Notes: a model not told the origin generated them from the sequence alone. DNA of 64,000 nt from an uncultured Bacillales bacterium (GCA_905206805.1 CAJLIR010000006.1:2999-66998); one strand, 5' to 3'; counted from the stretch's first letter, positions 10,556 to 36,800 are shown. Program-made: numbers and translations.

Positions 10556-10578
10556 TAAAAAAATAGAATATTAAAATT

Positions 10579-11013: not shown

Positions 11014-11117
11014 ATACTACTTCACCTATATATAATTTTCTCATTAAATAAAATTTTATTAATTTTTGTCCCCTATATGCGACCGAATGTGTTATAATAA
11101 ATACGAGGAGGAATATT

Positions 11118-11318
11118 ATGAATTATTTTATAAGACAATATCATAAAATTTTAACGCAGTTAGAAAATTATAAAAAAAATTTAGTTTTGAGACAAACCAA
11201 ATTTATTAATGATCAAGATATATATCTTAAATATTTTGATGAAATAGATAATTTATTATTGGATAAATATATAAAAATAGAAGAAATGTTAAATGAATTT
11301 AATGAACAAAATTATTAA
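11118..11318 (+). CDS. hypothetical small protein (66 aa)
   Basis: ORF with a GAGGAGG RBS; no recognisable domain. Confidence 0.3.
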   Translation: MNYFIRQYHKILTQLENYKKNLVLRQTKFINDQDIYLKYFDEIDNLLLDKYIKIEEMLNEFNEQNY

Positions 11319-12156: not shown

Positions 12157-12188
12157 CCAAAATAATAATACACTATAATTTAAAAATT

Positions 12189-12773
12189 TTAAATATTATT
12201 TTCTAAATATTCTTCTAAAGTTAAATTATTTTTAGTTATTTCTAAAGCAATTTTTCCTACATATCTATAATGCCATGGTTCATATTTAAATCCAGTTATA
12301 TTTTGTTTATCAGAGGGATATCTTAATATAAAACCATAATTAGGAGCATTTTTTATCATCCAAGAAAATTCCTTTGTATTACTAAAATTATTGTAGTCGC
12401 CCTCTGAACCTCTTACATCAACTGCAAGTCCTGTTTGATGTTCAGAGTGTCCTGGTTTAGCAGAACAGGCGTTAGCATATTCACTACCATATTTTAATAC
12501 ATAATTGTCGTATAATTTTTTTTGATATTCAAAACTTCTATATGTTGATTCTGCTTTTATACTTAAATTTAATTTTTTAGCATTCTTACATAATTTTTCA
12601 AAGCATTCTTTAGCTTCATTTCTTAAATATTTAGTATCAACAGAATATAATTCATTAATTTTTTCTAAATTGCTAGGTATAAATTTTTGATACAACATAT
12701 TATTTTTATTTACAAGTACTAATAAATCATCAGGATTTTCAATTAATTTTATATTTTTATAAAAATCATTCAT
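12189..12773 (-). CDS. D-alanyl-D-alanine carboxypeptidase, peptidase M15B (VanY-like)
   Basis: SEHQTGLAVDV (SxHxxGxAxD) and EPWHYRYVG motifs typical of VanY / M15 zinc D,D-carboxypeptidases. Confidence 0.8.
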   Translation of the reverse strand: MNDFYKNIKLIENPDDLLVLVNKNNMLYQKFIPSNLEKINELYSVDTKYLRNEAKECFEKLCKNAKKLNLSIKAESTYRSFEYQKKLYDNYVLKYGSEYANACSAKPGHSEHQTGLAVDVRGSEGDYNNFSNTKEFSWMIKNAPNYGFILRYPSDKQNITGFKYEPWHYRYVGKIALEITKNNLTLEEYLENNI

Positions 12774-12878
12774 TTAATCACCACTTAATTTTATGCGATT
12801 AATAAATTGGACATACTCATTATTTTTATTAAACCATATATTATGATAGAAGTTTTTACTTCTTTAAGGAGGAATTAT

Positions 12879-13127
12879 ATGAATAATAATACTATAAGCC
12901 TCGATTTACTTAAAATAGGAGATAGCGCTAATGTTGTAAAAATTAATTCAAACGATGATATAAAAAGAAGATTACTTGATATGGGAATAACTGAAAATAG
13001 CGTAATTAAATGTATTTTAGAAAGTCCTTTTAAAGATCCTAGAGCTTATTTAGTTAAGGGTGCCACTATAGCAATAAGAAATTGTGATGCGAAAGATATA
13101 ACGGTAAGGTGTTGTAATAATGAATGA
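12879..13127 (+). CDS. feoA: ferrous iron transport protein FeoA
   Basis: Small SH3-like FeoA domain; AAGGAGG RBS at 12866; overlaps the feoB start. Confidence 0.75.
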   Translation: MNNNTISLDLLKIGDSANVVKINSNDDIKRRLLDMGITENSVIKCILESPFKDPRAYLVKGATIAIRNCDAKDITVRCCNNE

Positions 13128-15174: not shown

Positions 15175-15227
15175 TTAAAATAATATATGTTTATATTAAA
15201 TAAAGAACAAACTTAAAAATTTGTTCT

Positions 15228-16919
15228 TTATTCTTTTACTGTTGGATTAAAATTTTCAATTGCTTCTACTAATTTAGGATGTCTTATAATAAAATGTATA
15301 ATAGGGTTAGAACTTTTTGATAGAATAACATAATTATCTTTTAAAATAGTTATATTTATATTATTAAATATTTTATAGTCGTTAATAGTAATATTATAGT
15401 TTTTTAAATTTTTTGCGTATTTTTTTGTACTATTTAAGTGTTCTAAATATTCTTCATAATTATATTTTATTTTTTTTGTATAAAACATATTTTCTAGTTG
15501 AAGATATACATCATTAAAATCATTTTTATTTAATGAATAAATAATATCATTTATTTCATTATTTTTAAGAATTAATTTTATATTTTTTTCTTCTTCATTT
15601 TTATATAATAATATATTATTAATATCATGTTTTGGAATATTATTTCTTTTTAAGATTTTAATAAGTAGTTCATCATTTATAGTAAATAGAGGTAATGAAG
15701 AAAATATTCTTTTTCTATTACCTTTAATATTTGTATCATTTAGTAAAAATAATTTATATTCTTCTTTTTGTTCCTCTCTATAAATATTCATAAGAGAATT
15801 TGCTTTCTTTAGTAATAATTCTGATTTTTCTTTATAATATTCAACTTCTTTATTATTAGCTGTTAAATAATATTTTCCTCTTTCGTGAGATCCGTTAATA
15901 CATTCACCCATTAAAGCAACACTACCAGATACATAATTTAAGTGGTTATATATATTTGTTTTATTATTTTTTAAATAGTAGGGTGTTATTTGACCTGTCA
16001 TATAAATTGGAATCCAACTTTCAAGTCCTAACATCATTTCATTAAAAGGTCTATCTAAATTATGGATTATATTTAAGTGTAATCCTTTTTTTAGACACAT
16101 CGCAATTCCAAACATCCAATTTTTACCAAATTTAATATCACTTGCCATATCTTCCATAGGCATATCACTGCACATAAACATATTTTCCATAGATTTTGAC
16201 AAAACTGTACCTTTAAGAAAATCAAGTTCTCCTTTTTTCATTTCTTCTATGCCATAGTATGATTTGGTTTTTGCTTTATAAAATGGAATATAGGGTACCT
16301 TTAATTCATCAAATTTAATTGCTTTTATATAATCATTTAGATTAAAATTATCTAAATTTTTTAAAAACTTATCTATTTGATTATCATTAATTATTTTATT
16401 ATTTAATATCCAATTTTTAATTTTTTCTTCATTTATTTCATTAATATTACAATTAAATAAAATACTTAAACTTTTTTTGGCGTCATCACTACTATATTTT
16501 TTTACTATATAACTAGTTAATTCATTTATAAATCCTTGTTTATTAGAAGGAATTCTATTACCGTTTCTAATTCTTGAAAGATATGATGCATCAAAATTTA
16601 AAAATTTAGCTAATTCACTAGCATTTATATCAAGACATATAATTAGTTTATTTAAGTTACATCTTATAATTTCAAAATCTATTTCTGTATTATTAATAGT
16701 TTTATTAAATTCAGTAAAAATGTCTTCTTTTTTATATTTTTCTTCTGAAAGTATAGATAAGGATTCACTAATTTTTTTTAAATTTTCATTATTAGGAATT
16801 CTATTACCACTTTTGTATCTACTTATTATTGATTCAGAAAGATTAGAGTATTTAGCGATATCTTTAGAACTACATCCAATTAAATTTATATACTTATTTA
16901 AAATATCATTAAACTTCAT
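15228..16919 (-). CDS. large protein with two N-terminal XRE-type HTH modules and an uncharacterised C-terminal domain
   Basis: Segments DIAKYSNLSESIISRYKSGNRIP and ASELAKFLNFDASYLSRIRNGNRIP look like HTH DNA-binding motifs; the remaining roughly 400 aa has no recognisable family. Confidence 0.55.
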   Translation of the reverse strand: MKFNDILNKYINLIGCSSKDIAKYSNLSESIISRYKSGNRIPNNENLKKISESLSILSEEKYKKEDIFTEFNKTINNTEIDFEIIRCNLNKLIICLDINASELAKFLNFDASYLSRIRNGNRIPSNKQGFINELTSYIVKKYSSDDAKKSLSILFNCNINEINEEKIKNWILNNKIINDNQIDKFLKNLDNFNLNDYIKAIKFDELKVPYIPFYKAKTKSYYGIEEMKKGELDFLKGTVLSKSMENMFMCSDMPMEDMASDIKFGKNWMFGIAMCLKKGLHLNIIHNLDRPFNEMMLGLESWIPIYMTGQITPYYLKNNKTNIYNHLNYVSGSVALMGECINGSHERGKYYLTANNKEVEYYKEKSELLLKKANSLMNIYREEQKEEYKLFLLNDTNIKGNRKRIFSSLPLFTINDELLIKILKRNNIPKHDINNILLYKNEEEKNIKLILKNNEINDIIYSLNKNDFNDVYLQLENMFYTKKIKYNYEEYLEHLNSTKKYAKNLKNYNITINDYKIFNNINITILKDNYVILSKSSNPIIHFIIRHPKLVEAIENFNPTVKE

Positions 16920-17111
16920 ATTTAATCACCGTTTATAATATATCAAAAAAATCTGTTAAAAAAAATATTTTTTATAAATTAAATAAAAATTTACTAAATA
17001 GTCAATGACATTTTGACAATAATTCTTTGTAACTGTGTTTATTTATAATATACTAAATGTAACAAATTATGTAATTTTTGTTATTTTTATAATAAGTAGA
17101 GGAGTGATATT

Positions 17112-17822
17112 ATGGCATTAATTAAATGTCCAGAATGTAAAAAAGATATCAGTGATAAGGCTTTGGTTTGTCCAAAATGTGGATATGAACTTAAAAGCGA
17201 AGGTACTTTAAATCAGGTTAAGAATAGTGTTGATTCTATTAAATCAGGAATTTTTAAATTTGATTATAAATTTATTCTTATAATTGCGGTATTAATTATT
17301 GGTGCATATTTTATTTTTAATCAAAATAAACAATCTAATTCTGGTGGTACTAGTACACCATCTAGTAATTCAGGATATTCAGTTTTTAATAGTTCTTATA
17401 TGGGAATATCGTTTGAATACCCAACTGGCTATAAGGTTGCGACTGATAAAGATGGATTTATCTATGTAGCTAAAAATATAGATAATGAAGGGGCTTTGAT
17501 TCCTTACATAATTATTGGAAGATATGATAATTATTATGACTCGGTTGCATTTTTAACTGATTTTACAAGTCATATGAGTCAACAATATAGTGATTTAATT
17601 TTGACTATTGATTTAGTTTCTGGAGTGCGTGCAGGTAGAACAGTATATGGTCTTGCATATAATTATACAAGTGGTGGTCATCTAGTAGTTGATAATAGAT
17701 ACGCAGTTACTATAAATAACAAGGTATATATGATTGGAAGCAAGGAAGAAAATGTAAATTCTGCCGAGATTAATGATGTAGTAGGACATATTCTAGATAC
17801 AATAACAGAAGGAGGTAAGTAG
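17112..17822 (+). CDS. zinc-ribbon membrane protein (N-terminal CxxC...CxxC, single TM, extracellular domain)
   Basis: MALIKCPECKKD...CPKCGY zinc ribbon; TM helix LIIAVLIIGAYFIF. Confidence 0.6.
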   Translation: MALIKCPECKKDISDKALVCPKCGYELKSEGTLNQVKNSVDSIKSGIFKFDYKFILIIAVLIIGAYFIFNQNKQSNSGGTSTPSSNSGYSVFNSSYMGISFEYPTGYKVATDKDGFIYVAKNIDNEGALIPYIIIGRYDNYYDSVAFLTDFTSHMSQQYSDLILTIDLVSGVRAGRTVYGLAYNYTSGGHLVVDNRYAVTINNKVYMIGSKEENVNSAEINDVVGHILDTITEGGK

Positions 17823-17823
17823 T

Positions 17824-18969
17824 ATGGCTTTAATTAAATGTAGTGAGTGTGGAAATGAAATTTCATCGAGTGCGAAATTTTGTCCTCAATGTGGAGCTAG
17901 TGTTGAACAACATTTTTGTCCAGAATGTGGTGTAAAATTAAAAGGAAATGAGATTAATTGTCCAGAATGTGGATTTCCTCTTACTAAAAAAACAGCGTCA
18001 AATATAATTACTGAGAATTTGGATAAAATAACAGGCGCAAAATCAGAAAATTATGTAACTTTTAAAGACTTATTTAAAGATACATTTAAAAAACATAGCG
18101 AAGAAGACTTAGATAATGTGTTTGTTTGTGGAAGCTCTAGTACGACTCCTAACGTAAAAGATGTTAATCCTAAAAAAGCAAGTGCTTGGGTATATTTTAA
18201 AATTTTTATATTTTTTATAATAGCTTACATTCCTACTAGAATTGGCTATATTAATTATGGTAATCTTAACTTTTTACCAGCAATGATTATGTTGGGTGCA
18301 TTTGCTGTACCAGTTACAGTTTTAATTTTTTTCTATGAAATAAATCTATTTAGAAACATTCCATTCTATAAAGTAATAAAGTACTTTATTCTAGGTGGTG
18401 CACTTAGTCTAATTCTAGCAATATTATTTTTCTCATTAAACCTTAATACTGATATAAGTACATATTCTGGTGCTTTAATGGTTGGATTAATTGAGGAGGC
18501 AGCAAAAGCTGTCATAGTAGCATTTTTTCTGTTTAAAAGTAAAAAGAGTAATTATATTTTAAATGGTTTATTAATCGGTGCAGCAGTAGGAGCTGGATTT
18601 GCTGCATTTGAAACAGCTGGTTATATATTAAGATATGGTTTGACTGGTGGCGATGCCGCTATGTTACAAATTATAAAACTTCGTGGTTTCTTAGCTCCAG
18701 GTGGACATGTTGCGTGGGCCGCTATTGAAGGTGCCGCACTTATGTATGTTAAAGGATTTGAAAAATTAGATAAAAAACATTTAAATGATAAAAGATTTTT
18801 ACTTATTTGTCTTATTTCAGTTGTTGAACACGGTATTTGGGATATGCCAATAGAAGCTCCATATTATTTAGTACCAATTGGACTTACGGTAGCTGCGTGG
18901 TTAGTTATAATATATTTTATTAATTTGGGTTTAAAACAAATTGATGATGCGAAAAAATTAAAAAATTAG
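17824..18969 (+). CDS. PrsW-family intramembrane metalloprotease with an N-terminal double zinc-ribbon
   Basis: N-terminus paralogous to the upstream gene (MALIKCSECGNE...CPQCG, CPECG...CPECG). Multi-TM core with GLIEEAAKA (EExxK), FETAGY (FxxxE) and a conserved His region, as in PrsW/YpdC. Confidence 0.7.
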   Translation: MALIKCSECGNEISSSAKFCPQCGASVEQHFCPECGVKLKGNEINCPECGFPLTKKTASNIITENLDKITGAKSENYVTFKDLFKDTFKKHSEEDLDNVFVCGSSSTTPNVKDVNPKKASAWVYFKIFIFFIIAYIPTRIGYINYGNLNFLPAMIMLGAFAVPVTVLIFFYEINLFRNIPFYKVIKYFILGGALSLILAILFFSLNLNTDISTYSGALMVGLIEEAAKAVIVAFFLFKSKKSNYILNGLLIGAAVGAGFAAFETAGYILRYGLTGGDAAMLQIIKLRGFLAPGGHVAWAAIEGAALMYVKGFEKLDKKHLNDKRFLLICLISVVEHGIWDMPIEAPYYLVPIGLTVAAWLVIIYFINLGLKQIDDAKKLKN

Positions 18970-19007
18970 AATTTAATTATTTTTGAATAAAGAAGGAGGA
19001 ATTTATT

Positions 19008-20108
19008 TTGAAAAATAAAACAAGTGTTATAATCATAACTATTTTTTTAGTAGTAGTTATATCTTTAGTTATCTTTAATTTTACTAAGAAAAACAATAAT
19101 AATTCTATAGATATTCCTAGTAAAAGTTTGGATGTTAAAATTGTAAAAAATGAGGTCTCAAATTTAACTCTTGAAGAATATACAAATGATGCACTTACAA
19201 TGAAAAAACCTAAGGGTTGGGTTGTAGAAACAGGTGGAAGTGGTATATATTATGCGATAAGAGTATATGACCCTAGTGATAGTAGAAATCAAGTATTTTT
19301 AATGTTAAAAGTTCAACCGCTTTTAAAAAGTGATGCATCAAAATCATTTTGGCAAAATTATTATAATATGAGTGGATATAATTCCCAATATAAATTATTT
19401 GCGGATGCGATAGTTTTAGATAGTCCTAAAGTAGAAACATTTTATCAAAAATTTAATGAAATTTTCTCATTTGTAAAATCGATTGATCCAAGTTTTTCTA
19501 CAATAAATTTTCCAACAATTAATAATTTTAAAACATTAGAAGAATTTGAATCAACAGCTTCAATGAAAAGTGTTGCTTTAGATAGTAAGGTTTTAAGAGC
19601 TACTTATAGTGATCAAGATAATAAAGAAGCAGAGGGTATGTTTTTAGCTTCTATTGTAAACTTTGGTAATAGTAATATGAATGGAGTAGATACCCTTTAT
19701 TATATGGTGTATGACATAATGGCTATTACAACAGCTAAAGATGAATTTATAGATTATAAAGATATATTATTAGAGTCAATTAATTCAATAGATTTTAATA
19801 GTTCTTATGTACAAAAAACTATAGATGATGGTAATGCTCAAACAAAACAAGCTCTAGAATTAAGTGCTAGTATGCAAAAAGCCTTTGATTCATATATGAG
19901 TGCTTGGGAAAATAGAAGTAAATCATACGATATAATGAGTCAAAAACAAAGTGATGCAACTTTAGGTTATGAAAGAGTTTATGATACTGAAACAGGAGAT
20001 ATATATAAAGCATATAATGGTTTCACCGATGACTATGATGGTGAAAGATACAAATCAATAACTGATAATATGTACACTGAAAAAACTAGTGGATATATTG
20101 AAAAATAG
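19008..20108 (+). CDS. hypothetical secreted protein
   Basis: N-terminal signal/anchor; 366 aa; no recognisable domain. Confidence 0.5.
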   Translation: MKNKTSVIIITIFLVVVISLVIFNFTKKNNNNSIDIPSKSLDVKIVKNEVSNLTLEEYTNDALTMKKPKGWVVETGGSGIYYAIRVYDPSDSRNQVFLMLKVQPLLKSDASKSFWQNYYNMSGYNSQYKLFADAIVLDSPKVETFYQKFNEIFSFVKSIDPSFSTINFPTINNFKTLEEFESTASMKSVALDSKVLRATYSDQDNKEAEGMFLASIVNFGNSNMNGVDTLYYMVYDIMAITTAKDEFIDYKDILLESINSIDFNSSYVQKTIDDGNAQTKQALELSASMQKAFDSYMSAWENRSKSYDIMSQKQSDATLGYERVYDTETGDIYKAYNGFTDDYDGERYKSITDNMYTEKTSGYIEK

Positions 20109-20115
20109 GTGAATT

Positions 20116-21084
20116 ATGAAAAATAAAAAAATTATTTTTATAGGTTCTATTTTATTTATTATTTTATTAGTATTTGTTTTATATTTAATAAATAATAAAG
20201 AAGGCTCTTCAAAAATATATAATGAAGATAAATTTGATAGTAAAACAGATACGGAACCAGTTAATTTACTTGAAGCTGTTTTGAAAAAAAATGGAAAAAA
20301 CAAAATTGAAGCAGGTTATTCTACTTTTGCAGGTGGAGAAGTTTTAACAGAAGGAACATTTTTTATAGATTATGCATTTATTGTTAATAATAAAGCTTAT
20401 ATTTATGATCCTGAAAAATTAAAAACAGATGAACTTAGTTATAAAAAGGTATATGATATACCAGATAATATAAATGTAACTAATATAGGAATTCCGTTTG
20501 GAGCTGATATATATTTTTATGATGATATAGGAAATCAATACATTTTAAAGGATACTAATATAGATAATGATATAAAAAGTGGATATTTAAAATATGAAAA
20601 AGCTAATTATGAATTAAAAAATTATACTACTGAATTATATAAAATAACTGATAATATAAAAGAAAACTATGATATTAGATGTAACTTATTTTACGCAAAA
20701 GATAATATTTTGTATAAAATAAATTATGGTTATTATAATTTTATAGAAAAAAGGGATGTTCCTGATTCGTTAGAAAAAGTATCAGGTAATTATGAAAATC
20801 AAAAGATATTGCACATTTATAATGATAGAATAGTTAAAACTGATAAAGGTTTTTATGAATTGATTGAATATTCAGATAATGGAAATGTATATACAACAAC
20901 TATGAAAATTGACCTGTTAACAAAATATTATGATGATGTTTTAACATTTACTTATGACTATGTAATTTTAAAAGATTATACATTAATACCAATAAATGAT
21001 GTAATGACAAATAGAAGTCAAAAATATTTAAATGGATTTTATTTAGGTAGATTAGATGAAAAACCAGTAGAATTTGTAGAATAA
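20116..21084 (+). CDS. hypothetical membrane-anchored protein; its 3' 760 bp is duplicated at 26094-26880
   Basis: N-terminal TM; ORF 26477-26851 encodes an identical C-terminus. Confidence 0.55.
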   Translation: MKNKKIIFIGSILFIILLVFVLYLINNKEGSSKIYNEDKFDSKTDTEPVNLLEAVLKKNGKNKIEAGYSTFAGGEVLTEGTFFIDYAFIVNNKAYIYDPEKLKTDELSYKKVYDIPDNINVTNIGIPFGADIYFYDDIGNQYILKDTNIDNDIKSGYLKYEKANYELKNYTTELYKITDNIKENYDIRCNLFYAKDNILYKINYGYYNFIEKRDVPDSLEKVSGNYENQKILHIYNDRIVKTDKGFYELIEYSDNGNVYTTTMKIDLLTKYYDDVLTFTYDYVILKDYTLIPINDVMTNRSQKYLNGFYLGRLDEKPVEFVE

Positions 21085-21112
21085 ATAAATTCTACTTTTT
21101 TATATCTATAAT
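20322..21112. repeat. about 790-bp direct repeat, copy 1 (3' part of gene 20116-21084 plus 28 bp downstream)
   Basis: Near-identical sequence at 26094-26880. Confidence 0.85.
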
Positions 21113-21132
21113 CATTTTATTTTTAGTAGAGA

Positions 21133-22394
21133 GAGTGTAAAAAAATTTGTGTAAAGTTACCAATCCATGGTAATAAAGATATTTGAGGTTGATTAGTATC
21201 AATCTCTTTTTGTTACTTAAATAATAACATAAATTAAATAATTTTCAAAGATCAATTTAATCGTTCAGGATATAATATATTTAATTCATTATAAATCATA
21301 TCCCAATCAGGGCATCTAGTAGTCCATTTTTTCTCTACATTTTTAGTAGCTAAAAATAAGCATTTCATTAAAGAATTATCACTAGTAAATACTCCTTTTG
21401 TTTTAGTATGTTTACGATATGAACGATTTAAACTTTCTATCGCATTTGTTGTATACATTATTTTTCTTAATTCTTTTGAATAGTTAAATAATGTACAAAT
21501 TGCTTCCCAGTTATCTTCCCAAACTTTTAAACTTGTTGGATAAATAGAACACCATTTGTTTTTTACTTTTTCTAAATTTTCTCTTGCTTCCTTTTCAGTA
21601 TTTGATTTATATATAGTTCTTAAATCATTACAAAATTCTTTTAAATATTTATAAGAAACAAATTTAACCGAATTTTTGATTAAATGAACAATACATCTTT
21701 GTTGCATAGCTTTTGGATAAACAGCTTTAATTGCCTCGTTTATTCCATTTAATACATCAGAACATATAATTAAAATATCTTTAACACCACGATTTTTAAT
21801 TCATTTAAAGTTTCTAACCAATATTTAGCTGACTCATTTTCTTCAATCCATATTCCAAGTACCTCTTTAAAACCATCAGCATTAACACCTAACATTACAT
21901 AAGTTGCTTTTTTTACTATAACATTTTCTTGTTTAACATTAAAATGTATAGCATCAATAAATACAATTGGGTATACTTCTTTTAATGGTCTTTTTTGTCA
22001 TTCATCTATCTCTTCTAAAACTGCATCTGTTATATTACTAATTATCATAGCAGAGAGTTGTATATCATAAATATCTTCAATAGAATCACTTATTTCTCTT
22101 GTAGATAATCCTTTACAATAAAGATTTATAACTTTTTCTTCAATTCCAGAAATGTCTCTTTTATTTTTAGGAACAATTTGAGGCTCAAATTCAGCATTCA
22201 TCATAGTTTAAATAGTATCTTTAAACATATCTTTTATGCATAAGCAATATCATTTGCATCTTTAATATCATAATTTTTTAATAAATATTTAACAACTTCA
22301 TTATTTTTATTTTCTTTCATACAAAAATCCTTTCTTGGTTCTATATTTCTATATTACCATAGAAAGGATTTTATCTTTACACAAAATTATTTAC
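21133..22394 (-). mobile_element. degenerate IS256-family insertion sequence (about 1.26 kb) with terminal inverted repeats
   Basis: Transposase fragments on the minus strand. Left end gtaaaaaaatttgtgtaaagttacc and right end (reverse complement) gtaaataattttgtgtaaagataaaatcc form imperfect IRs sharing the AATTTTGTGTAAAG core. Confidence 0.6.
21252..22330 (-). pseudogene. IS256-family transposase, disrupted by several frameshifts
   Basis: C-terminal fragment (21252-21707) carries QRCIVHLIKNS and other IS256 (mutator-type) motifs. N-terminal fragments sit in other frames (21998-22204, about 22205-22330). No single intact reading frame. Confidence 0.65.
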
Positions 22395-24128
22395 AGACTC
22401 ATCAATATTTTTAATTTCTGTATCATATAACTCTTTATATTGTTTACAATTTTGTAGAAGTTGCTTATGATTTCCTTCTGCAATAATTTGACCATTTTCT
22501 AACATTAAAATTCTGTCTGCATTTTGTATTGTAGACAATCTGTGAGCAATAATTAAAATTGTGTATTCTTTTTGTAAATTATCTATTGCTTTTTGTATTT
22601 TTGATTGCGTTTCGTTGTCTAATGCACTTGTTGCTTCATCAAATAATATAATTTCAGTTTTTTGAACAAATGCTCTTGCTATTGCCAATCTTTGTTTTTG
22701 ACCACCTGATAATGTGATTCCACCTTCACCAACAATAGTGTCATATTTATTAGGTAATGATTCTATATAATCATCTAAGCAGGCCATTTTACATGCATCT
22801 TTCATTTCTATATCGGTTAAATCCTGTTTTACAAGTTTTAAATTGTCTTTAATACTCATATTAAAAATATATGGATTTTGACTTACAATTGTTATATTTC
22901 CTCTAATCGAATTCTTGTCTAATTCTTTAATATCAATATCATCAATTGTTATTGTTCCTTCATAATTATCATACATTTTACATAAAAGATTAAAAATCGT
23001 TGTTTTACCAGATCCACTTTTTCCTACAAAAGCAACAGTTTCATTCGCTTTTACTTTCAAGTTACAGTTTTTAAGTACATTGTTTTTGTTATATTTAAAT
23101 GATACATTTTTGAATTCAAAATCACCTTTTATATTGTTTAAATGTTTTTCTCCAAATACTTCTTTTTCATATTTTTTATCTTCAAAAATATCAAATATTC
23201 TTGTCGCAGATAAATTAAATTTTTTTATTAATTCGTGAAAACCAGTAACATTTTCAACAAAATTATTATATCTATTTCCAAAATTATAAATTATTAATCC
23301 AACTGCAACAGACATTGAACCAGAGTTAATAGATAGACCAATTATTAAAATCATTAAAAAAAACGAAATATCAGCCCAATACCATCTAACTATTAAATAT
23401 GATAAATTGGTGTTTTCTATTTTATATCGTTCTATATTTAATTTTTCAAACTTATTTCTTAATTCTTTTAAGAAACTTTCTTCACCGTTTAACATTTTAA
23501 TATCTTCTGCACCACGTACTATTTCTCCAGTAAAACCTGTTATACTATCATTGATTTTTCTATATTCTTTATCATTTTTATTATAAGCATTAATTCTTAT
23601 TATTTCAATTATTAATCTAATTGTAAAAGCAATTAGTACAAAGATAAACATTGTTTTACTTAAAATAAAATATGTAACAATTACGCCAATGTTTGAAATA
23701 ATTCCATTTATATATTTATTTAAATCAGTAAATATTGAAGAGATGTTTCTTGTATCTCCAACTAATCTTTGAATAAACATACCAGAACCATTTTCTTCTA
23801 ATGTTTTATTATTTAACTTTAGTATTTCTGCTCCTAAATTTGATTGAACATTTATATATATTTGTTTAAATATTTTTTCATACAATTTACTTTTAAAATA
23901 ATTTATTGTATCCCCAATTAAATGTGCAGATATTAAGATTACTCCAACATATATAAATTGTTCAATATTATTGTCAGTTAAATTAACTATAATACTTGCT
24001 GAAATAAAAGGATAAATTATACTTGCAATAATATTAAATAAACTAAGTATGAAATATAAAATTATTCTTTTTTTCTCACTTTTTGCATATTTCCATACAA
24101 ATTTAATATTTTTTTTAAATTCTTTCAC
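22377..24128 (-). CDS. ABC exporter, fused transmembrane domain plus ATPase (type I exporter)
   Basis: Six N-terminal TM segments; Walker A GKSGSGKTT; signature LSGGQKQRLAIARA; no C39 peptidase domain. The stop codon lies inside the IS256 right inverted repeat. Confidence 0.85.
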   Translation of the reverse strand: MKEFKKNIKFVWKYAKSEKKRIILYFILSLFNIIASIIYPFISASIIVNLTDNNIEQFIYVGVILISAHLIGDTINYFKSKLYEKIFKQIYINVQSNLGAEILKLNNKTLEENGSGMFIQRLVGDTRNISSIFTDLNKYINGIISNIGVIVTYFILSKTMFIFVLIAFTIRLIIEIIRINAYNKNDKEYRKINDSITGFTGEIVRGAEDIKMLNGEESFLKELRNKFEKLNIERYKIENTNLSYLIVRWYWADISFFLMILIIGLSINSGSMSVAVGLIIYNFGNRYNNFVENVTGFHELIKKFNLSATRIFDIFEDKKYEKEVFGEKHLNNIKGDFEFKNVSFKYNKNNVLKNCNLKVKANETVAFVGKSGSGKTTIFNLLCKMYDNYEGTITIDDIDIKELDKNSIRGNITIVSQNPYIFNMSIKDNLKLVKQDLTDIEMKDACKMACLDDYIESLPNKYDTIVGEGGITLSGGQKQRLAIARAFVQKTEIILFDEATSALDNETQSKIQKAIDNLQKEYTILIIAHRLSTIQNADRILMLENGQIIAEGNHKQLLQNCKQYKELYDTEIKNIDESVNNFV

Positions 24129-24353
24129 AAAACCACCTCAACTTAGTATATTTTAGCAATTGCAATAATAAAATTCTAGCCTTGAATTTTATGAAAAAAT
24201 ATGATATAATTTTTTAGACATTGTAATATGAAAAATGATGAAATTATGGAATCTTTAAATTAAAAAGAAAATTCAATTTAGCGATAAATATTAAAATTAT
24301 CTAGTTAAAATGTTTCAATATGATATAATACTGTTATATGGGGTGTGATTTTT

Positions 24354-24815
24354 ATGGAAAATCTAGATGAATATTTAAACCAAGATATTTTTAATCCAAA
24401 ATATTTATTTCATGGTAGTTCTAAATTATTAGAAAAATTAGAGCCGAGACAATCAAAAGATAAATATAATGCAGAAAATGAAGATTGTGCTATTTTTTTA
24501 AGTAGTTGGTTTATTAATGCTGCTGCATATGCTTTTAGAAGTAAATTAAAAGAAATAAATGAATATTATAGCTTTAGGATGAATAATAATGGAACTTTAC
24601 CTGCTATGGAATATGAAGTTGAAAATATCCCAGAAAATTTATTTGAGTATATTTATGTATTAAAAAAGAAGAGGATATTATTAAAGATAGTTATGAATAT
24701 ACTACTCAATATAGATGTTATCATGAATTAGAACCAATAAAAGTTATTAAAGTCAATTTTGATTATTTTGAAAAATATTTTCAAAGAGTAGAACAGAAAC
24801 AAAGAAAAAAATAAG
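24354..24815 (+). pseudogene. hypothetical gene apparently frameshifted in a poly-A run
   Basis: The ORF 24345-24731 ends with a low-complexity tail. A protein-like continuation (EEDIIKDSYEYTTQYRCYHELEPIKVIKVNFDYFEKYFQRVEQKQRKK) sits in a different frame after the A6 run near 24662. Confidence 0.3.
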
Positions 24816-25267
24816 ATTATGTATATAAATAAAAAAGATCTTTATATTCAACTAAAATTTTTTGTAATGTAGAAGAATTTATAAAAAAATATATAAACAA
24901 GTACGTAAAAACAAGTACGTAAAAAAATATAATTAATCTACAAAATACTATTTATTTTTTGTATGTTTTCAAAAATCATGTATGATGGAGAGTTGTTTGC
25001 ATAGCCAGTAAATAATTTTGTTAAAGATAATGCTTTTATATGTAAAACAGTTGTTCTATGCATCATCAAGTATAGAAAATAGTTCTAAATTACTAGAAGA
25101 AATGACTAAAAGATGAATTCGTTGAAATTTAAAAAAAGTTATGATAAAATGAAGGAAGCTAATTTTAAATAGGTGTGAATAATTATTAAAATATTGTAAA
25201 AACAAAACAAAAATAATTTATATAATTTTTGATTATAATTATGCTATAGTTTAGGAGGCTAATTTAT

Positions 25268-25933
25268 ATGAAATATGAGAATGACTTATTTATAATTAAT
25301 TATAATGAATGTGATAAAGAATATATTGATGAATTAATTTCTTATTTAAATAAAGAAGCATATAAAATAATGAATTTTTTTAATTTAAAAAAATTAGATA
25401 AAAAATGTATTATAAAATTTTATTCTACAAAGAAAGACTTTGACTATAATGCTTATTATAAAGTATATAATGAACAATCACCGGATTTTGCGATTGGATT
25501 TGCAAATAAAGGAATTATTTATTATGTTTCTTATAGCGATTATAAAAATATAGAAAAGCATAAAAATGATTCATTTGATTATTTTAAAAAAACACTTGTT
25601 CATGAATTTGTTCATCATTGCAATTATTTATATACTAATATATGGAATAGACCATTATGTGAAGGGCTAGCAGTATATTTAAGTGGTCAACAGGAAAATA
25701 ATATGTATGAATTTAATATATCAAAAGAAAATCTTTTCTTTGGTAGAATTAATTATAGGCAGTATTACATGTTTGTTAAATATATAATTGAAAATTACTC
25801 AAACGATTATTTTTTAAAATTATTAAGTGATGAAAATTTTCAAAATAAAAATTTAGATATTCTTTATGATGAGGCAAATGAATATTATAGAAATTATTTT
25901 AATGAATTAAACACAAAATGTATAAAAAAATGA
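25268..25933 (+). CDS. putative zincin-like metallopeptidase (HEXXH)
   Basis: HEFVHH motif with a downstream Glu (CEGLAVY); good AGGAGG RBS; 221 aa. Confidence 0.45.
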   Translation: MKYENDLFIINYNECDKEYIDELISYLNKEAYKIMNFFNLKKLDKKCIIKFYSTKKDFDYNAYYKVYNEQSPDFAIGFANKGIIYYVSYSDYKNIEKHKNDSFDYFKKTLVHEFVHHCNYLYTNIWNRPLCEGLAVYLSGQQENNMYEFNISKENLFFGRINYRQYYMFVKYIIENYSNDYFLKLLSDENFQNKNLDILYDEANEYYRNYFNELNTKCIKK

Positions 25934-26093
25934 TTAAACTGTTCAATCATTTTTTTGTAATAAGAAATTTATAGATAAAATTACAAAAAAAGTTTTAAAG
26001 ATTATTGATATATTAAAGAATTTATTATTGTAATAATTTGAATTATGTAGAAAATTTATATAAAAATATTATGTAAAATATAAACTCAAACTT

Positions 26094-26880
26094 TTGTAGG
26101 TGGAGAAGTTTTAACAGAAGGAACATTTTTTATAGATTATGCATTTATTGTTAATAATAAAGCTTATATTTATGATCCTGAAAAATTAAAAACAGATGAA
26201 CTTAGTTATAAAAAGGTATATGATATACCAGATAATATAAATGTAACTAATATAGGAATTCCGTTTGGAGCTGATATATATTTTTATGATGATATAGGAA
26301 ATCAATACATTTTAAAGGATACTAATATAGATAATGATATAAAAAGTGGATATTTAAAATATGAAAAAGCTAATTATGAATTAAAAAATTATACTACTGA
26401 ATTATATAAAATAACTGATAATATAAAAGAAAACTATGATATTAGATGTAACTTATTTTACGCAAAAGATAATATTTTGTATAAAATAAATTATGGTTAT
26501 TATAATTTTATAGAAAAAAGGGATGTTCCTGATTCGTTAGAAAAAGTATCAGGTAATTATGAAAATCAAAAGATATTGCACATTTATAATGATAGAATAG
26601 TTAAAACTGATAAAGGTTTTTATGAATTGATTGAATATTCAGATAATGGAAATGTATATACAACAACTATGAAAATTGACCTGTTAACAAAATATTATGA
26701 TGATGTTTTAACATTTACTTATGACTATGTAATTTTAAAAGATTATACATTAATACCAATAAATGATGTAATGACAAATAGAAGTCAAAAATATTTAAAT
26801 GGATTTTATTTAGGTAGATTAGATGAAAAACCAGTAGAATTTGTAGAATAAATAAATTTTACTTTTTTTATATCTATATT
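26094..26880. repeat. about 790-bp direct repeat, copy 2
   Basis: Near-identical to 20322-21112. Confidence 0.85.
26097..26851 (+). pseudogene. 5'-truncated duplicate of gene 20116-21084
   Basis: The reading frame is open from the repeat boundary with no upstream start or RBS; the encoded C-terminus is identical to that of 20116-21084. Confidence 0.6.
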
Positions 26881-26932: not shown

Positions 26933-27355
26933 ATGAAAATAACTTTAAAAAAAATAATTTTTATGATATTAATATTTATAATTGTTGGAGTTTTGTTTTT
27001 TATATTAAAAAATAATATTAATAATCAAGAAAAAAATCTTAGAAATCTTCTAAAACAAATGGGTAGTGATTTTTATGAAAATTATTATTATGATGCTTTA
27101 GATGATGATGTTTCTATAAGACAAACTTTCTTAAAAAAGTATGAAACAATTGGAATTAAAATTAACTTAGATAATTTATCTAGATATAGTGCTTTAAATA
27201 ATAGGGATAATTTAGAAAAATTTGTTAATAACAAGACTAATCAGGAGTGTGATAAGATAGATACAAAAGCTATTATATATCCGAAGTATCCGTTTGAAAA
27301 AAAATCGTATGAAATAGATGTAGAGTTATCTTGTGGTTTTGATGAAAGTAAATAA
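26933..27355 (+). CDS. small secreted / membrane-anchored protein with two conserved Cys; diverged paralogue of 46333-46779
   Basis: N-terminal TM; about 50% identity to the 46333 product (SDFYENYYYD...KYETIGIKINLDNLSRY...TKAIIYP...). Confidence 0.55.
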   Translation: MKITLKKIIFMILIFIIVGVLFFILKNNINNQEKNLRNLLKQMGSDFYENYYYDALDDDVSIRQTFLKKYETIGIKINLDNLSRYSALNNRDNLEKFVNNKTNQECDKIDTKAIIYPKYPFEKKSYEIDVELSCGFDESK

Positions 27356-27427: not shown

Positions 27428-30400
27428 ATGTATAAGAATAAAAATTTGATTATATTAATATTTAGTTTAGTTTTGTTTTTTGTATTTTATCCTGATGTTT
27501 TTGCTCAGGAGATATCAGAATTTTCTTGTACAGATGATTATCAAGAATTTATTGCGCCAACTTATGGAAATTATAAAATAGAATTATGGGGAGCTGCTGG
27601 TGGTAGAAACTTAGTTGATAACGCATATACTAATACAACATATGCAAAACTAGGTGGTAAAGGTGCTTATACTAGTGGTGTTATTACTCTTAAGAAAAAC
27701 GAAAAAATTTATGTTTATGTTGGATGCAAAGGGCGAGATGCTAAGAAAGCTACTATTGTCGCTGGCGGATATAATGGTGGAGGTAGAGGAGATCACGATC
27801 ACTCTGATGATGAAGCTTCTGGTGCTGGTGGAGGTGCTACAGATGTTCGTTTAGTAAAAGGTGATAATTGGGATGATTTTACTTCTTTAAAAAGCCGTAT
27901 TATGATTGCTGGTGGAGGCGGAGGAGCTTCTTACGAACTTCGTGGTGGAAATGCTGGTACGCTTTCTGGTGAGGACACTCTTTATAGTAAAGGTGGAACT
28001 CAAACCACTGGATATAAATTTGGAATTGGACAAGATGGAGTTTATGTAAATTCTAATGTCGATGTTGCCGGAGGTGGAGGCGGATATTTTGGGGGATTTG
28101 CCAAATCTTCAGGAGCTTCTAATTCTTATAAAACAGCTGGTGCTGGTGGTAGTTCGTTTGTGTCAGGGTGTACAGGTTGTACTGCTATTTCTGGAAATTC
28201 TACTGAAGATAATATATATTTCTTAAATAGTAATATTCATTATAGTAATTATAAATTTAGTGATATTGTTATGAAATCTGGTAGTGAAGAGATGCCAAAC
28301 TATTTAGACAATAGTGTTATTACTGGTAATAGCTCTGATGGACATGCGAGAATAACTCTTATAAATGGGATTTCTCATTTTACTAAATTAGATATTGAAA
28401 ATGCTACTATTGTTCAAAAATTAGAAGATTCTGTTTTTGAATATGATGTAATTATTCCAAATGATAATTTTTCGACAACTATTAATTATGAAACATCAGT
28501 AAAAAATGTAACTGTATTTGGAGCTGGAAAGGTTACATTAAAAGATGGAAAAGTACATATGGTAAGTATTATAGACAATGATACTGGTGATATTACAATA
28601 TATAATATTACGCCATCTTTAAAGAAATCTACTTTAAAATCGATTTCATTTAGTGAAAAACAATTTGATTTTAATCCTGATCAATATGAATATACAATAG
28701 AAGTACCTTATAATATTTTTGACTTAACGCCTATTATAGAGACTTATGATAATACTACTTATACTATAGAAAAATCTACTTTAAAAATTGGAAATAATTT
28801 AGTAAAAATAAATGTAAGTACTCAAGGTATGGAAAATTCTACTTATAAATTTTATGTAAAAAGACAAGAAAGCAATAATCTTAAAACTATATATGAATCA
28901 ACAGGCTCTTCCGAAGAATACGTTGTACCTTATTCTGGTTATTATGAAATAGAGTTATGGGGAGCTGCTGGTGGCCGAGGTAGAACTAATTATGTATTAG
29001 ATAAATATGGTGGTAAAGGTGGGTATACAAAAGGTACTATCTATCTTGAAAAGGGTACTATTCTTTATTTTTATGTAGGTGGTAAAGGCCTTAATGCTGC
29101 AAGTGTATCTAGATGTGTAGGTGGACTTGGAGGATATAATGGTGGAGCTCAAGGTGGAATTGATGGAAACTGTGATTCTAATCCTGAACCTGGTGCCGGA
29201 GGTGGTGGAGCCACTGATGTTCGTTTGGTAGGAGGAGATTGGAATAATATTGATTCACTAAAAAGCCGTATAATGGTTGCCGGAGGCGGAGGAGGAGGAA
29301 CATATTCTTATGTTGGTTCTTCAGCCGGTGGACTTAATGGGTATGCTGGAGGAGCGGCTAAAACTTTCGCAACTCAAATATCTGGTAATGCATTTGGATA
29401 TGCAACTATGGTTTCTAATTCAGATTATACTGGAGGACCAGGAGGTTCTGGAAGTGGATATTATGGTGGTATAACTAATAAAAGTGATTCTGCATCTGGT
29501 GGAGGAGGTTCCAGTTTTATTTCTGGACATGCTGGAAGTATAGCTATAAATGAAGATGGAATTCCAAAGACAAATGTATATACTGTACTTGATAATTCTA
29601 TTCATTATTCAAATTATAAATTTGAAGATACAGTTATGATAGATGGAAATGGATATGAATGGACAACTAAGAAGGAAACTCAAATTGGAATGCCTACATT
29701 TGATGGAAAATCAAAAATGAATGGTAATGAAAATTCTGGTTATGCCAAAATAACTTTTTTAGGACGAGGAAAAGAAGATACGTTAGATTTCATTGCTTTG
29801 AGTAGTGGTACATTAGATCCAGTATTTGATCCTGATACAAAAGAATATAATGTTACTCTTGATTCATCTGTTTCACAGTTGACTGTTGACGCTACATCTT
29901 CTAATCCGGATATAGCGATATATGGTTTAGGAGAATATGATATTCCGTCAGGAAAAACTGATATAAATATTCAGCTTACTTCTGTAAATGGAAATGTTAA
30001 TTTATATACAATTCATGTAACAAGAGACGCAAATAGTAACAAGTATTTATCTAATGTACTTATCAATGGTATAAAATATGATTTATTTTCACCTAGTAAA
30101 TTCGAATATAATATTGAACTTCCTACAAGTATTAATTATATTGATTTAGAAGTAATTAAAGGTTCTACAAGTCAAGAGGTAACTGGAACAGGTAAGTTTG
30201 AATTTAGTAATAATTCTATTTCTAAAACAATTTTAGTTGTATCTGAAGATAAAAATGAAAGTCAACATTACATATTTAATTTTACAAGAAAAAAGAGTAC
30301 TAAATTAAAAAGTATTGATCTTGGTAATGAACTAATAAAAAATTTTGATTTTGGTTCTGATATATATGAATACAATATAGAAATTCCTAATAATATATTA

Positions 30401-33400
30401 GAGTTGAATATTAATACCATTGCTTATTATAATGGTGCATCTATTGAGATAATAGGCGGCCACTATTTGGAAAAAAGTGGTGTTATAACTGTAACTTCTA
30501 AATTAGAAGGTCTAGAAGATTCTGTTTATAAAATTAATTATACAAAAACTTCTGATATTGATGTTCCCGAAAATTTATATGAGTATACTGGTGATGTTCA
30601 AACATTTACGGCATTATATGGTGGAAAATATAAAATAGAATTATGGGGAGCTGCTGGTGGACGTGGAAGAACTAATTATGTATTAGATAAATATGGTGGT
30701 TCTGGAGGTTACACAAGTGGTGAAATAGTACTTAATCAAAACCAAGTTTTGTATGTTTATGTTGGAGGTAAAGGAAAAGATTCAGCAAGTGTATCTAGAT
30801 GTGTAGGTGGACTTGGAGGATATAATGGTGGAGCCAAAGGTGGTATTGATGGAAACTGTGATTCTAATCCTGAACCTGGAGCTGGTGGCGGAGGAGCTAC
30901 AGACATTCGTTTAGTTGGTGGTATTTGGAATGATACTGATTCATTAAAAAGCCGTATTATGGTTGCTGGAGGTGGTGGAGGAGCCACTTATAATGTTACC
31001 GGTTCATCCGCTGGTGGATTAGAAGGATATATTGGAAATAAAGGAAAATCGGCTGCAACTCAAATATCTGGTAATGCATTTGGATATGGCACTATTGTTT
31101 CTGATTCGGATTATACTGTTGGCCCAGGAGGAGCTGGAAGTGGATATTATGCTGGTACAACTAGTAGAAGTGATGGTTCATCTGGTGGAGGTGGATCAAG
31201 CTTTATTTCTGGACATGCCGGAAGTATAGCCATAAATGAAGATGGTAATCCTAAAACCACACTTTTTACAACTTTAAGTGATTCATATCATTATTCTAAT
31301 TTTGTTTTTACTAATACTGTTATGATAGATGGAAAAGGGTATAATTGGACTACTAAAAAAGAAGGTGTAACTTCTATGCCAGATCCTTATGGGGGATATT
31401 ATAAAGATGGTACTGGAAATTCTAAAGATGGCTATGCTAGAATAACTTTATTATCTACTTTAAGTAGTAATAATTTCTTAGATTCTCTTACAATTAACGA
31501 TGGTGATATTTCGATTGCATTTGAGCCTTGGATTACAGAATATGATTTAAATCTTGAAGAAGATGATAAATATATAAAAATTTCTGCTAAAGCGAAAGAT
31601 GAAGATGCTGTTATTAGCGGTTTAGGTACTGTCACTGTGCCACCTGGCAATAGTAAACAAACAATCTCTGTTACAGCAAGTGATGGAAGTGTTAGAAATT
31701 ATGTATTAAATATAAATCGTAAGGGTTCGAGTGACCCATATCCTTTAGACATACAAATAAATAAAATGAATCCTTATTTATGTCAAAAAGATTCTCATTA
31801 TTGTAATTATACTTTTAATAAAGATACAACTAATTATGAAATTACTTTACCTTTTATGCTTAATGAAGTTGAGGTAAAACCTATTTTAAAATCAGAATAT
31901 CAAAGTGTTATTTATAGAAAAGTAGAAGCTGATAATACAACTGAACTAGAAAATGGTACTTTTAGTTTAACAAATGATATAAATACTTATCAAGTAGAAG
32001 TTACTAGTGAGGATGGAACTCAAAATATTGTTTATACATATGTATTTAAAAGAGATATGACGGGTAATAATAATTTAACTAGTTTAAAAATTGTTAATCC
32101 AGATATTGAAATTGATTTTGATCCATATAAATATGAGTATTATGGAACAATTACTTCAGCTTATACAAATTATGATATTGAAGCAATTCCTGAAAGTAGT
32201 GATGCAAAAGTTTCTATTACAGGAAATACTAATTTGGTTTTAGGAATTAATGATGCTATGGTAATTGTTACTGCTTCTAATGGTGATACTAAAACTTATT
32301 TACTTCATATTTATAAAGAGCAAGATAGTAATGTGTTTTTGAAAGAATTAGAAGTTGTTGGAAATGGAAGTTCTTTAGAGTTATCACCACAATTTAATAA
32401 ATTGTTAAATGATTATGTTATAAGTGCTCCTTCAAATGTGAAATCTGTTACTATAAATGCAACTCCCGAAAGTGGCAGTGCATCTGTTACTGGATTAGGT
32501 AATAAAGTTTTAAAATCTGGTATAAATAATTTTAGTGTTCAAGTAACTAGTGAAAGTGGAGATGTTAATGTTTATAATTTGACAATTAATAAAGATAAGA
32601 ATTTTAATCCACTACTTTCTAATATTGAAATAGATGGATATACTTTTGAAGAAGAATTTAGTCCTACAAATTATGAATATTATTTAAAAATACCAAAGGA
32701 TGTTACTTCGCTTGATTTAAATGTTACTCCACAGGAATCTACTACAAATTATAGAATTAGTGGGAATCGTAATTTAGTAAAAGTAAATAATACTATTACA
32801 ATTCATAGTGTTGCTGAGAATCAAACCTCAAAAGATTACTATATATATGTATCAAAACCTCTTTCATCAAATAATTATTTGAAAGATATTAAGTTAAGTA
32901 CAGGCACCTTAAATGAAGAATTTAATAAAGAAACACTTGAATATACTATGGATATTTCAAGTGATGTTGAGAGTATAGATGTTACCGGAATTTTGGATGA
33001 TTCAAGTTCAATTATAAAGGGTAATGGTACATATTATTTATCCACAGGTGTAAATGTAATTAAACTTGTTGTTCAAAGTGAAACAGAAGAGGAACGTATA
33101 TATACTATAACAATAAATAGGGATAAAAATGATGATGCTGGTTTAAAAAAGGTAAATAATAGCGCAGGTAGTAGTGTTATACTAAATGATACAGAAGAAT
33201 ACCAATATTTGATTAATGTTCAATATGAGGTAAATCAAATAGAGATAAATGGTATTCCAAATGTATCAACATCAACAGTAAATGGTAATGGTACGTATTC
33301 ATTAAAGGTTGGAAATAATGATATTGTTTTAAGCGTTCAAAGTGAGAAAGGAACAGTAAAGACATATATTGTTAGGGTCGTAAGAGATTTATCCTTAAAT

Positions 33401-36733: not shown

Positions 36734-36750
36734 ATTTGTTAAATAGAAAA

Positions 36751-36778: not shown

Positions 36779-36800
36779 GTCGATTTTTGTAATATTTCGG

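Follow-up and report, generated by a model that had tools for sequence, protein, structure and literature searches.

Here we analyse a 64-kb stretch of DNA from an uncultured Bacillales bacterium (GCA_905206805.1 CAJLIR010000006.1:2999-66998), referred to throughout as the window, in which an intact gene for a 322-amino acid (aa) protein (gene322) is followed by an insert of about 5 kb and then by a second, 5'-truncated copy of the same gene. The insert begins at a left junction, J1, occupied by the remnant of an IS256-family insertion sequence (IS), continues through a gene for an ATP-binding cassette (ABC) exporter, a pseudogene of a 153-aa protein and an intact gene for a 221-aa protein, and ends at a right junction, J2, inside the coding sequence of gene322. 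Comparison with approximately 45 loci of the same species, fetched by exact-protein look-ups from independent metagenome assemblies (L-numbers below), indicates that the species, an uncultured member of the human-gut Bacilli, is probably polymorphic in chromosome structure at this locus, which forms the left edge of a hypervariable island of surface-protein genes. Two alternative downstream haplotypes of gene322 appear to have been joined in series: haplotype II, which runs from an intergenic stretch (x-y) to a gene for a 258-aa protein, and haplotype I, which consists of a gene for a 140-aa protein (gene D) and genes for giant proteins. The simplest reading is that the two haplotypes were brought together by a single homologous exchange plus an illegitimate joint, J2; taken as a whole, we give this explanation a little better than an even chance of being correct.

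Organization of the locus

Self-BLAST aligned the two copies of the repeat (788 and 789 nt) at 99.6% identity, with 2 mismatches and 1 gap, and the repeat was further checked by base-by-base comparison at an offset of 5767 and by reading of the raw sequence. A 789-nt match of this quality cannot have arisen by chance. A core of 761 bp (20331-21091) is 100% identical between the copies, all differences being accounted for by a mismatch at 20330, a mismatch at 21092 within a terminator-like hairpin, and a 1-nt indel in a T-run (T6 versus T7). The unique spacer between the copies spans 21111-26089. An earlier account of this stretch, made from the DNA alone (the sequence-only reading), had proposed a direct duplication of ~790 bp flanking a ~5-kb insert; alignment confirms it, with coordinates that were right to within about 4 nt, and all four contents that had been listed for the insert (an IS256 remnant, an ABC exporter, a frameshifted open reading frame (ORF) and a HEXXH protein) are indeed present. 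Coordinates are summarized in Table 1.

Table 1. Features of the gene322 locus, with positions counted from the first nucleotide of the window.
Feature	Position	Strand	Description
gene322	20116..21084	+	Intact 322-aa ORF; core gene bordering the variable island
Repeat copy 1 (R c1)	20323..21110	+	gene322 codons 70-322, stop codon, terminator-like hairpin and 9 nt (ATATCTATA)
Terminator-like hairpin	21076..21101	+	GTAGAAT-AAATAA-ATTCTAC, then T6; read from sequence
x, 20 nt	21111..21130	+	Haplotype-II intergenic sequence; 18/20 nt identical to L014 at the same position
IS256-family element, 1270 bp	21131..22400	-	Non-autonomous; PF00872 on ORFs 21252-21707 and 21998-22204; exactly on J1
ABC exporter, 583 aa	22377..24128	-	Fused permease and ATPase (Pfam, NCBIfam); native part 22401-24128
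Pseudogene of 153-aa protein	24354..24814	+	Function unassigned; 1-nt deletion at ~24657 relative to the intact gene of relatives
221-aa protein	25268..25933	+	Intact; HEFVH motif; weak Peptidase_MA_2 match
Right junction J2	26089..26090		Last insert base joined to first base of gene322 codon 70
Repeat copy 2 (R c2)	26090..26878	+	5'-truncated, start-less gene322 copy with terminator; right end and continuation are haplotype I
140-aa gene (D)	26933..27355	+	Opens the haplotype-I island; the 3101-aa and 1851-aa surface proteins come next

Copy 1 comprises the last 762 nt of the gene322 ORF plus 26 nt downstream. Copy 2 is headless, and the description of an intact gene followed by a 5'-truncated duplicate was therefore accurate: codons 1-69 are missing, the frame is open only from a stop codon at 26081-26083, and the first in-frame start is a TTG at 26477. 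The hairpin of copy 2 (26843-26869) has a stem with a G-U wobble and a T7 run; the terminator-like hairpin was missed by the scanner, for which it is too A+T-rich. Annotators should label 26090-26878 a gene fragment and mark the ABC gene as truncated by the IS.

Occupied and empty sites in related strains

The relatives include the empty site that had been predicted from the window. In 6 loci (L001, L002, L006, L007, L008 and L009) gene322 and its terminator are followed by the sequence from window position 26879 onward, so that gene D directly adjoins gene322. The insert was found in 8 loci (L003, L005, L011, L012, L015, L016, L017 and L018) that derive from different cohorts and assemblers, on contigs of up to 82 kb; copy 2 is spanned after the 221-aa gene in L003, L011, L012, L016 and L017, and the remaining three (L005, L015 and L018) end 55-231 nt inside it. 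At the protein level, the IS-fused form of the ABC exporter clusters at 100% identity across ~59 contigs, and the native-type protein (P0148) occurs in 3 contigs. The repeat-flanked structure is thus real, widespread and not recent.

Given the nature of the data, copy 2 might instead be thought an assembly artefact, generated by loop resolution of a collapsed repeat or by a mixture of strains and existing in no single chromosome. The assemblies appear to be short-read metagenomic, the core is identical in every genome with differences only within ~20 nt of the ends, MEGAHIT and Logan contigs break at repeat boundaries, and the contig of L010 runs unbroken through the repeat. However, more than 10 independent assemblies have unique sequence across J1 and J2, among them scaffolds of 23-82 kb that span the order A-R-insert-R-D (R, repeat; D, gene D). 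Six of the carriers (at least 8 assemblies) cross both junctions together with copy 2, which excludes a one-off assembly error. Moreover, J2 joins the insert to the middle of gene322, a joint that no mixture of known haplotypes can make. The only alternative with the same assembly graph is the circle considered below, and an artefact is extremely unlikely.

The sequence that follows gene322 allows the two copies to be assigned to different haplotypes. L014 represents haplotype II: 88 nt (x-y) separate gene322 from the 258-aa gene (window 48108). L004 shares this x-y continuation as far as the 258-aa gene, but there it is interrupted by a group II intron and two further ABC genes. The right end of copy 1 (C at 21092, T6, then x) is the allele of L014, L004 and L010. 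The right end of copy 2, on the other hand, is in each case the local insert-free allele: T, T7 and TTTAG... in the window, L003 and L016, as in the empty sites L001, L002, L006 and L007, and the L008/L009 type in L011 and L012. Since the right ends of the copies differ by haplotype, the locus holds both versions of "gene322 tail plus downstream region" in series, with the cargo between them.

Two of the loci call for separate comment. L010 (a MEGAHIT k141 contig, equivalent to ~10100-21125) is unbroken through the whole repeat and ends after GATTTTTA, beyond which the IS-bearing, IS-deleted and haplotype-II forms no longer agree; the contig may come from a strain with x and a single copy of the repeat. 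The group II intron of L004 (10987-11620; Rfam RF02001, 111 bits; RF01998, 48 bits) starts directly after the T-run of the gene322 terminator, just after the equivalent of window 21101. Class C group II introns habitually insert after intrinsic terminators, and the position of the L004 intron fits this habit.

Among carriers, the cargo is 99.2-100% identical, compared with 97.4-99% for the flanks and 75% for the giant gene, and the insert sits on two very different downstream backgrounds. As the cargo is more uniform than the flanks and the giant gene, and is present on both backgrounds, we conclude that the joint arose a single time and was spread between backgrounds by recombination, for which nothing beyond ordinary double crossover in the flanks need be invoked. 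A tract of divergence lies immediately upstream of the repeat: in the gene322 linker (20218-20314) 15 of 97 nt differ in L011, L012 and L013, with essentially no differences from 20323 on, such that the tract ends 9 nt before the repeat. This pattern could reflect conversion bounded by the repeat or simply the hypervariability of the linker, in which P0009 is mosaic. The drop in divergence at the left edge of the repeat was accordingly downgraded as proof of repeat-bounded conversion, given that the tract coincides with a naturally hypervariable linker; in alignments, the gene322 protein consists of an N-terminal hydrophobic segment, this linker and a conserved domain.

Right junction

On its insert side, J2 lies 156 nt past the 221-aa gene. 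No IS end or remnant is present at J2, nor is there similarity between the upstream sides, and at most 2 nt (AC) of microhomology are possible. All loci that extend to the joint have it in identical form. Four window-type Logan unitigs run 30 nt into the repeat, to 26119, the distance expected for k = 31. The unitig of L030, which carries the native end of the ABC gene and a transglutaminase-like neighbour absent from the window, ends at 26091; this stop suggests, without proving it, a branch exactly at J2 and hence a copy of the cargo with a different native continuation.

Left junction and the IS256-family remnant

J1 has a different character. Here the IS lies between 20 nt of haplotype-II backbone (x) and an ABC gene that is short of 6 codons. 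The Mutator-type DDE transposase family PF00872 matches two ORF fragments of the element (E = 1.7e-30 and 8.3e-15), and the inverted repeats, GAGAGTGTAAAAAAATTTGTGTAAAG and GAGTCTGTAAATAATTTTGTGTAAAG, are 26 nt long with 21/26 positions matching. The ends of the element, at 21131 (GAGAGTGTAAAA...) and 22400 (...TTTACAGACTC), are fixed by three independent references: L018, in which the IS stands beside unrelated DNA and which sets the left end at GAGAGTG; L030, in which the ABC gene retains its native 3' end, corresponding to 22401 onward; and L014, which contains the backbone up to 21130. The transposase is damaged in at least four places: two frameshifts, a TAA stop and an in-frame TGA interrupt it, and ~45 codons are missing internally. 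The element is multi-copy, as L018 (1-336) holds the same broken copy beside unrelated DNA encoding the C-terminus of another protein. The in-frame TGA stands in EEIDE*QKRPL, at a position that we take to be Trp in IS256-type transposases; it could be a nonsense mutation or a trace of origin in an organism using genetic code 4.

No target-site duplication of 8-9 bp is present, the flanks of the IS (TTAGTAGA versus ATCAATAT) being different, which means that these flanks were not contiguous before the IS arrived. The last 6 native codons of the ABC gene (IKETVL) have been swapped for 7 IS-encoded codons (ESVNNFV); the native C-terminus, ...EIKNIDIKETVL, is seen in P0148 and in homologues of 80-90% identity, and the native 3' end also in L030. 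J1 is therefore a secondary, IS-mediated junction, formed by a later IS-associated deletion or by IS-by-IS exchange. As the IS separates the backbone from a truncated ABC gene with no target-site duplication, the 5-kb insert in its present form is what trimming left of something else.

Forms that lack the IS (P0149-P0152, L011 and L012) correspond to the window minus GTAGA-IS-ATCAATATTTTTA, that is, to a deletion between two ATTTTTA 7-mers. The sequence between the IS ends and these 7-mers is native on both sides: GTAGA belongs to the backbone, as in L014, and ATCAAT to the ABC gene, as in L030. The IS-less forms are derived rather than ancestral, because the IS-bearing form keeps 11 native nt that they have lost. 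L011 and L012 have undergone an additional deletion of 1,024 bp that removed the 5' part of the ABC gene (N-terminal half) and its upstream region. A simple IS insertion (21126-22405, with an 8-bp duplication TATTTTTA and the L011 form as ancestor) was considered and rejected on the right-flank sequence.

The presence of an IS exactly at J1 with no target-site duplication is the signature of an IS-associated rearrangement, and the element is multi-copy, with another flank in L018; IS256-family transposition or recombination between IS copies could hence be held responsible for the 790-bp repeat itself, as the sequence-only reading had offered in the alternative. This proposal did not hold. The window contains one IS, located at the left junction, and none at J2; unequal exchange between IS copies would result in a contiguous segment being present on either side of the IS, unlike the order observed; and the transposase is dead. 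Events of the IS256 type give duplications of 8-9 bp, not 789 bp. An IS-made duplication is accordingly quite improbable.

Identity of the two copies

In all 5 genomes in which both copies are assembled, the 761-nt cores are identical within the genome, and seven strain-private SNPs are common to both copies. We infer that this identity reflects gene conversion (concerted evolution), collapse of the repeat in short-read assembly, or both. A de Bruijn assembler holds the core once and traverses it twice, such that only the ends, within ~20 nt, are phased, and it is to these ~20 nt that the differences between copies are limited. The sequence-only reading had suggested counting mismatches to obtain the age of the event. 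The count itself is simple (2 mismatches and 1 gap); as identical cores are explicable by conversion or collapse, however, it is invalid as a clock, and the same caution applies to repeat identity in short-read metagenome-assembled genomes (MAGs) at large.

Concerted evolution over a long period would also be expected if the copies were old tandem paralogues, i.e. if two full copies of gene322 had flanked the cargo, the second had lost its head, and conversion had kept the tails identical, with empty sites arising as pop-outs. The private SNPs common to both copies in 5/5 genomes fit such a history, and the observed empty site, with the right end of copy 2, is what the repeats would yield on recombining. 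Nevertheless, two full-length copies occur in none of ~40 loci, the copies precede two alternative alleles of the same intergenic region, which indicates fusion of haplotypes rather than duplication in situ, and more steps are needed. We regard this explanation as very unlikely. Silent-cassette antigenic variation was rejected, since the two copies are identical.

Origin of the arrangement

The favoured explanation, the fusion of two haplotypes, can be laid out as a series of steps, the order of which we infer. Initially, DNA with an intact gene322, its haplotype-II downstream region and the cargo (the ABC, 153-aa and 221-aa genes) would have joined a haplotype-I chromosome. Two events would have been needed for the joining, a homologous exchange and the illegitimate joint J2 between base 26089 and codon 70 of gene322, and the resident or the incoming gene tail would have been left as a headless duplicate. 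An IS256-family copy may then have deleted, or recombined away, the interval from x to the 3' end of the ABC gene, thereby producing J1 with no target-site duplication. Finally, in some strains, a deletion at the 7-nt microhomology would have removed the IS, and a 1-kb deletion the 5' part of the ABC gene and its upstream region.

The exchange may have proceeded by one of three paths. In path a, linear homology-facilitated illegitimate recombination (HFIR) would be anchored in gene322 or upstream of it, the free end would join inside the resident gene322, and the resident tail would be displaced downstream. Path b would be the mirror image of this, with the anchor on the right side. In path c, a chromosomal fragment circularized by J2 would enter by Campbell integration. 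The three paths give the same end product and are not separable here, recombination having erased the haplotype structure upstream. The exchange is probably best described as HFIR ("displacement") or as the equivalent Campbell integration.

Campbell-type integration was the principal proposal of the sequence-only reading, and it stands in part: the topology, the empty site and the haplotype-specific right ends all agree with it, but no free-standing circle was found and linear HFIR gives the same product. A more specific version invokes a self-standing circle (plasmid-like or excised, ~4.5-5.8 kb) that carries a 790-bp fragment of gene322, integrates by single crossover, and can excise and re-integrate. 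The architecture fits exactly and empty sites exist; an identical J2 on two diverged backgrounds, with the right end of copy 2 matching the local allele, is what repeated Campbell integration predicts; and unitigs composed of the insert and repeat ends (L015, L018-L022) are also expected from a circle. Yet Pfam, NCBIfam and PADLOC scans of all insert ORFs revealed no integrase, excisionase, recombinase, replication or mobilization gene. No plasmid or phage matched the insert as a unit (distant plasmid matches, at ~65%, are limited to the IS and ABC genes), and it is seen solely in chromosomal contexts. Furthermore, the DNA beside copy 1 is haplotype-II backbone of the chromosome, and no target-site duplication accompanies the IS junction; a circle, if there was one, would therefore be a piece of chromosome rather than an element. 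The spread is equally explained by double crossover in the flanks, and the cargo is pseudogenizing. A circle of this kind is therefore unlikely.

We attach even less probability to the notion that the block is a recombinase-free mobile cassette, in which the repeats would pop out a circle that re-enters empty-site strains by single crossover, the same homology-hitchhiking building the island from both of its edges. If this were true, homology-hitchhiking would be a general route of island growth in an uncultured gut lineage.

Several observations weigh against the fusion of haplotypes as set out above. Among the loci compared, we found no strain with the cargo beside gene322 and x that lacks copy 2, and none with the transglutaminase-like gene and the ABC gene downstream of x; the intermediate states are consequently hypothetical. 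L030 and L031 carry the cargo ABC gene in another left context on contigs of at most 4.5 kb, which are too short to be linked to the gene322 locus, and since the ABC gene has different neighbours in every related species that was examined, its native position could not be placed. In short-read graphs, the integrated form is indistinguishable from an empty chromosome accompanied by a circle. Lastly, no competence genes were recognized in the window, although no search was aimed at them.

A large tandem duplication followed by deletion was also considered. It was set aside, as it would need two cargo copies per genome, and the native-type ABC protein occurs in only 3 contigs as against ~59 for the IS-fused form.

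Comparison with known systems

Displacement by HFIR has been proposed for effector-immunity arrays of the type VI secretion system (T6SS) and for Rhs loci (PMC5361080). In that process, incoming DNA is anchored by a conserved bordering gene and its other end is joined illegitimately, the 3' part of the resident gene being kept as a start-less fragment beside its old neighbour (PMC5361080). The locus described here resembles such cases (T6SS arrays in Vibrio cholerae, orphan 3' fragments of Rhs and contact-dependent inhibition (CDI) loci) in that (i) copy 2 and gene D correspond to the displaced remnant, (ii) one junction lies in homology (gene322 and upstream) and the other, J2, is illegitimate with no more than 2 nt of microhomology, and (iii) copy 2 is kept beside its original downstream neighbour, with the haplotype-I allele and gene D as in empty-site strains. 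Displaced tails in T6SS and Rhs arrays differ from one another, comprising alternative toxin domains and immunity genes, whereas the tails here are identical, and Pfam, NCBIfam and PADLOC scans found nothing that marks gene322 and gene D as a toxin-immunity pair.

Campbell insertion-duplication, as known from mutagenesis with non-replicating plasmids, likewise yields an intact gene, an insert and a truncated copy, with repeats that equal the segment of homology, and is reversible by recombination between the repeats, which would yield the observed empty site. The difference is that the locus shows no sign of a vector-like circle, a replicon or a selectable function; what would have served as the "circle" equals a fragment of a conspecific chromosome closed illegitimately. 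Islands and prophages that integrate into the 3' ends of genes by means of an integrase share with the locus a gene 3' end duplicated on both sides and an empty site in relatives. Here, however, there is no integrase or excisionase, the repeat measures 789 bp as compared with tens of bp for attachment (att) sites, and the boundaries are an IS joint and an illegitimate joint. The element at J1 is like other members of the IS256 family (ISCpe3-like, ~66% nucleotide identity) in its Mutator-type DDE transposase (PF00872) and its ~26-bp inverted repeats starting with GAG; it is unlike them in that the transposase is broken in at least 4 places and has an internal deletion, the 8-9 bp duplication is absent, and the element lies on a rearrangement joint. 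A composite transposon or IS-bounded duplication would have an IS at each boundary; in this locus it is confined to J1, with none at J2.

The event is thus a fresh instance of known insertion-duplication, or displacement, at an island border, and involves no new mechanism or element. Its value lies in offering a clean natural example of the growth of a variable island, for which the empty, fused, IS-trimmed, IS-deleted and further deleted states of the locus have been kept. It also demonstrates that a "Campbell signature" in a single genome can hide a multi-step history.

Cargo genes

The cargo is decaying, to judge from two independent frameshifts in the 153-aa gene, a truncated ABC gene and a dead IS. 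Intact ORFs for the 153-aa protein are present in L003, L005, L017, L018, L019, L011, L012 and L030. The gene has been broken twice independently at the same spot (~24657), by a 1-nt deletion in the window and L015 and by a 5-nt deletion in L016, L020 and L021; the shared break point could be a slippage hot spot or could reflect repeated loss of function. For the 221-aa protein only 10 homologues were found, and those of 50-55% identity are chromosomal in other Bacilli, where they lie between spoVA and dxs.

Homologues of the ABC gene at 87-90% identity have yet other neighbours. L031 contains a 99.5% identical ABC gene with its native 3' end and a different sequence upstream of the promoter region (1-30 of L031, just beyond the equivalent of window 24178), so that the ABC gene and the 153-aa/221-aa pair are not always linked. 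Homologues of the transglutaminase-like neighbour did not reveal the native locus of the cargo: in GTDB genomes and JGI metagenomes they belong to Candidatus Coprovivens sp. (82-85% protein identity), which is another species, and are not linked to the ABC gene.

Host, flanking genes and the variable island

The G+C content of the window is ~20-30%. The gene322 protein matched no Pfam or NCBIfam family. Its homologues in gut Bacilli metagenomes number 2571, the nearest of them at 99%; those that are named are listed as "MAG: Bacilli bacterium". One neighbouring gene has its nearest named relative in Candidatus Coprovivens sp. Upstream of gene322 lie the core genes feoAB and genes for a PrsW protease and a pseudouridine synthase. 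Scans for tRNA genes and Rfam families found none in the 64-kb window, and a promoter scan was uninformative, with 75 sites found against 81 expected by chance.

The island downstream of gene D (27428-46241) encodes the 3101-aa and 1851-aa proteins, with ALK_LTK glycine-rich, cadherin-like, Big_2 and weak dockerin domains, as well as a 704-aa cohesin-domain protein and a 566-aa protein. Long internal repeats occur at 38088-41426, in units of ~1.1 kb with 80-93% identity, and alleles of the giant surface proteins differ by 25% between strains. In overall appearance the giant-protein island resembles surface systems of the cohesin-dockerin type, here in a lineage of gut Bacilli.

A second direct repeat (46771-47216 / 48953-49398; 448 nt, 97.5%) is located at the other edge of the island. 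Its first copy consists of the promoter and the first ~370 nt of a gene for an S11 D-Ala-D-Ala carboxypeptidase (49028-50182), leaving a truncated 140-aa ORF (46846-47268), and is followed by a 2.2-kb block encoding a 241-aa HTH_36 protein and the 258-aa protein and then by the intact gene. The truncated S11 copy is present in every examined context of the 241-aa gene and mirrors the gene322 case; as a second truncated duplicate of a bordering gene, at the opposite edge of the island, it was counted in favour of haplotype fusion. A single linear fragment (26090-47216), cut in the gene322 and S11 peptidase genes and placed in a second type of island, was also considered. This was not supported: the truncated S11 copy lies upstream of the 241-aa gene even in a sample with an empty gene322 site, and no adjacency of the 221-aa and 241-aa genes was found.

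Farther downstream, two collagen-like proteins with an exosporium-type BclA C-terminal domain are encoded at 50289-51416 and 54416-55525, with short internal repeats (e.g. 50396-50563 / 50627-50794). Together with the spoVA genes of relatives, these BclA-type proteins suggest a spore-forming organism.

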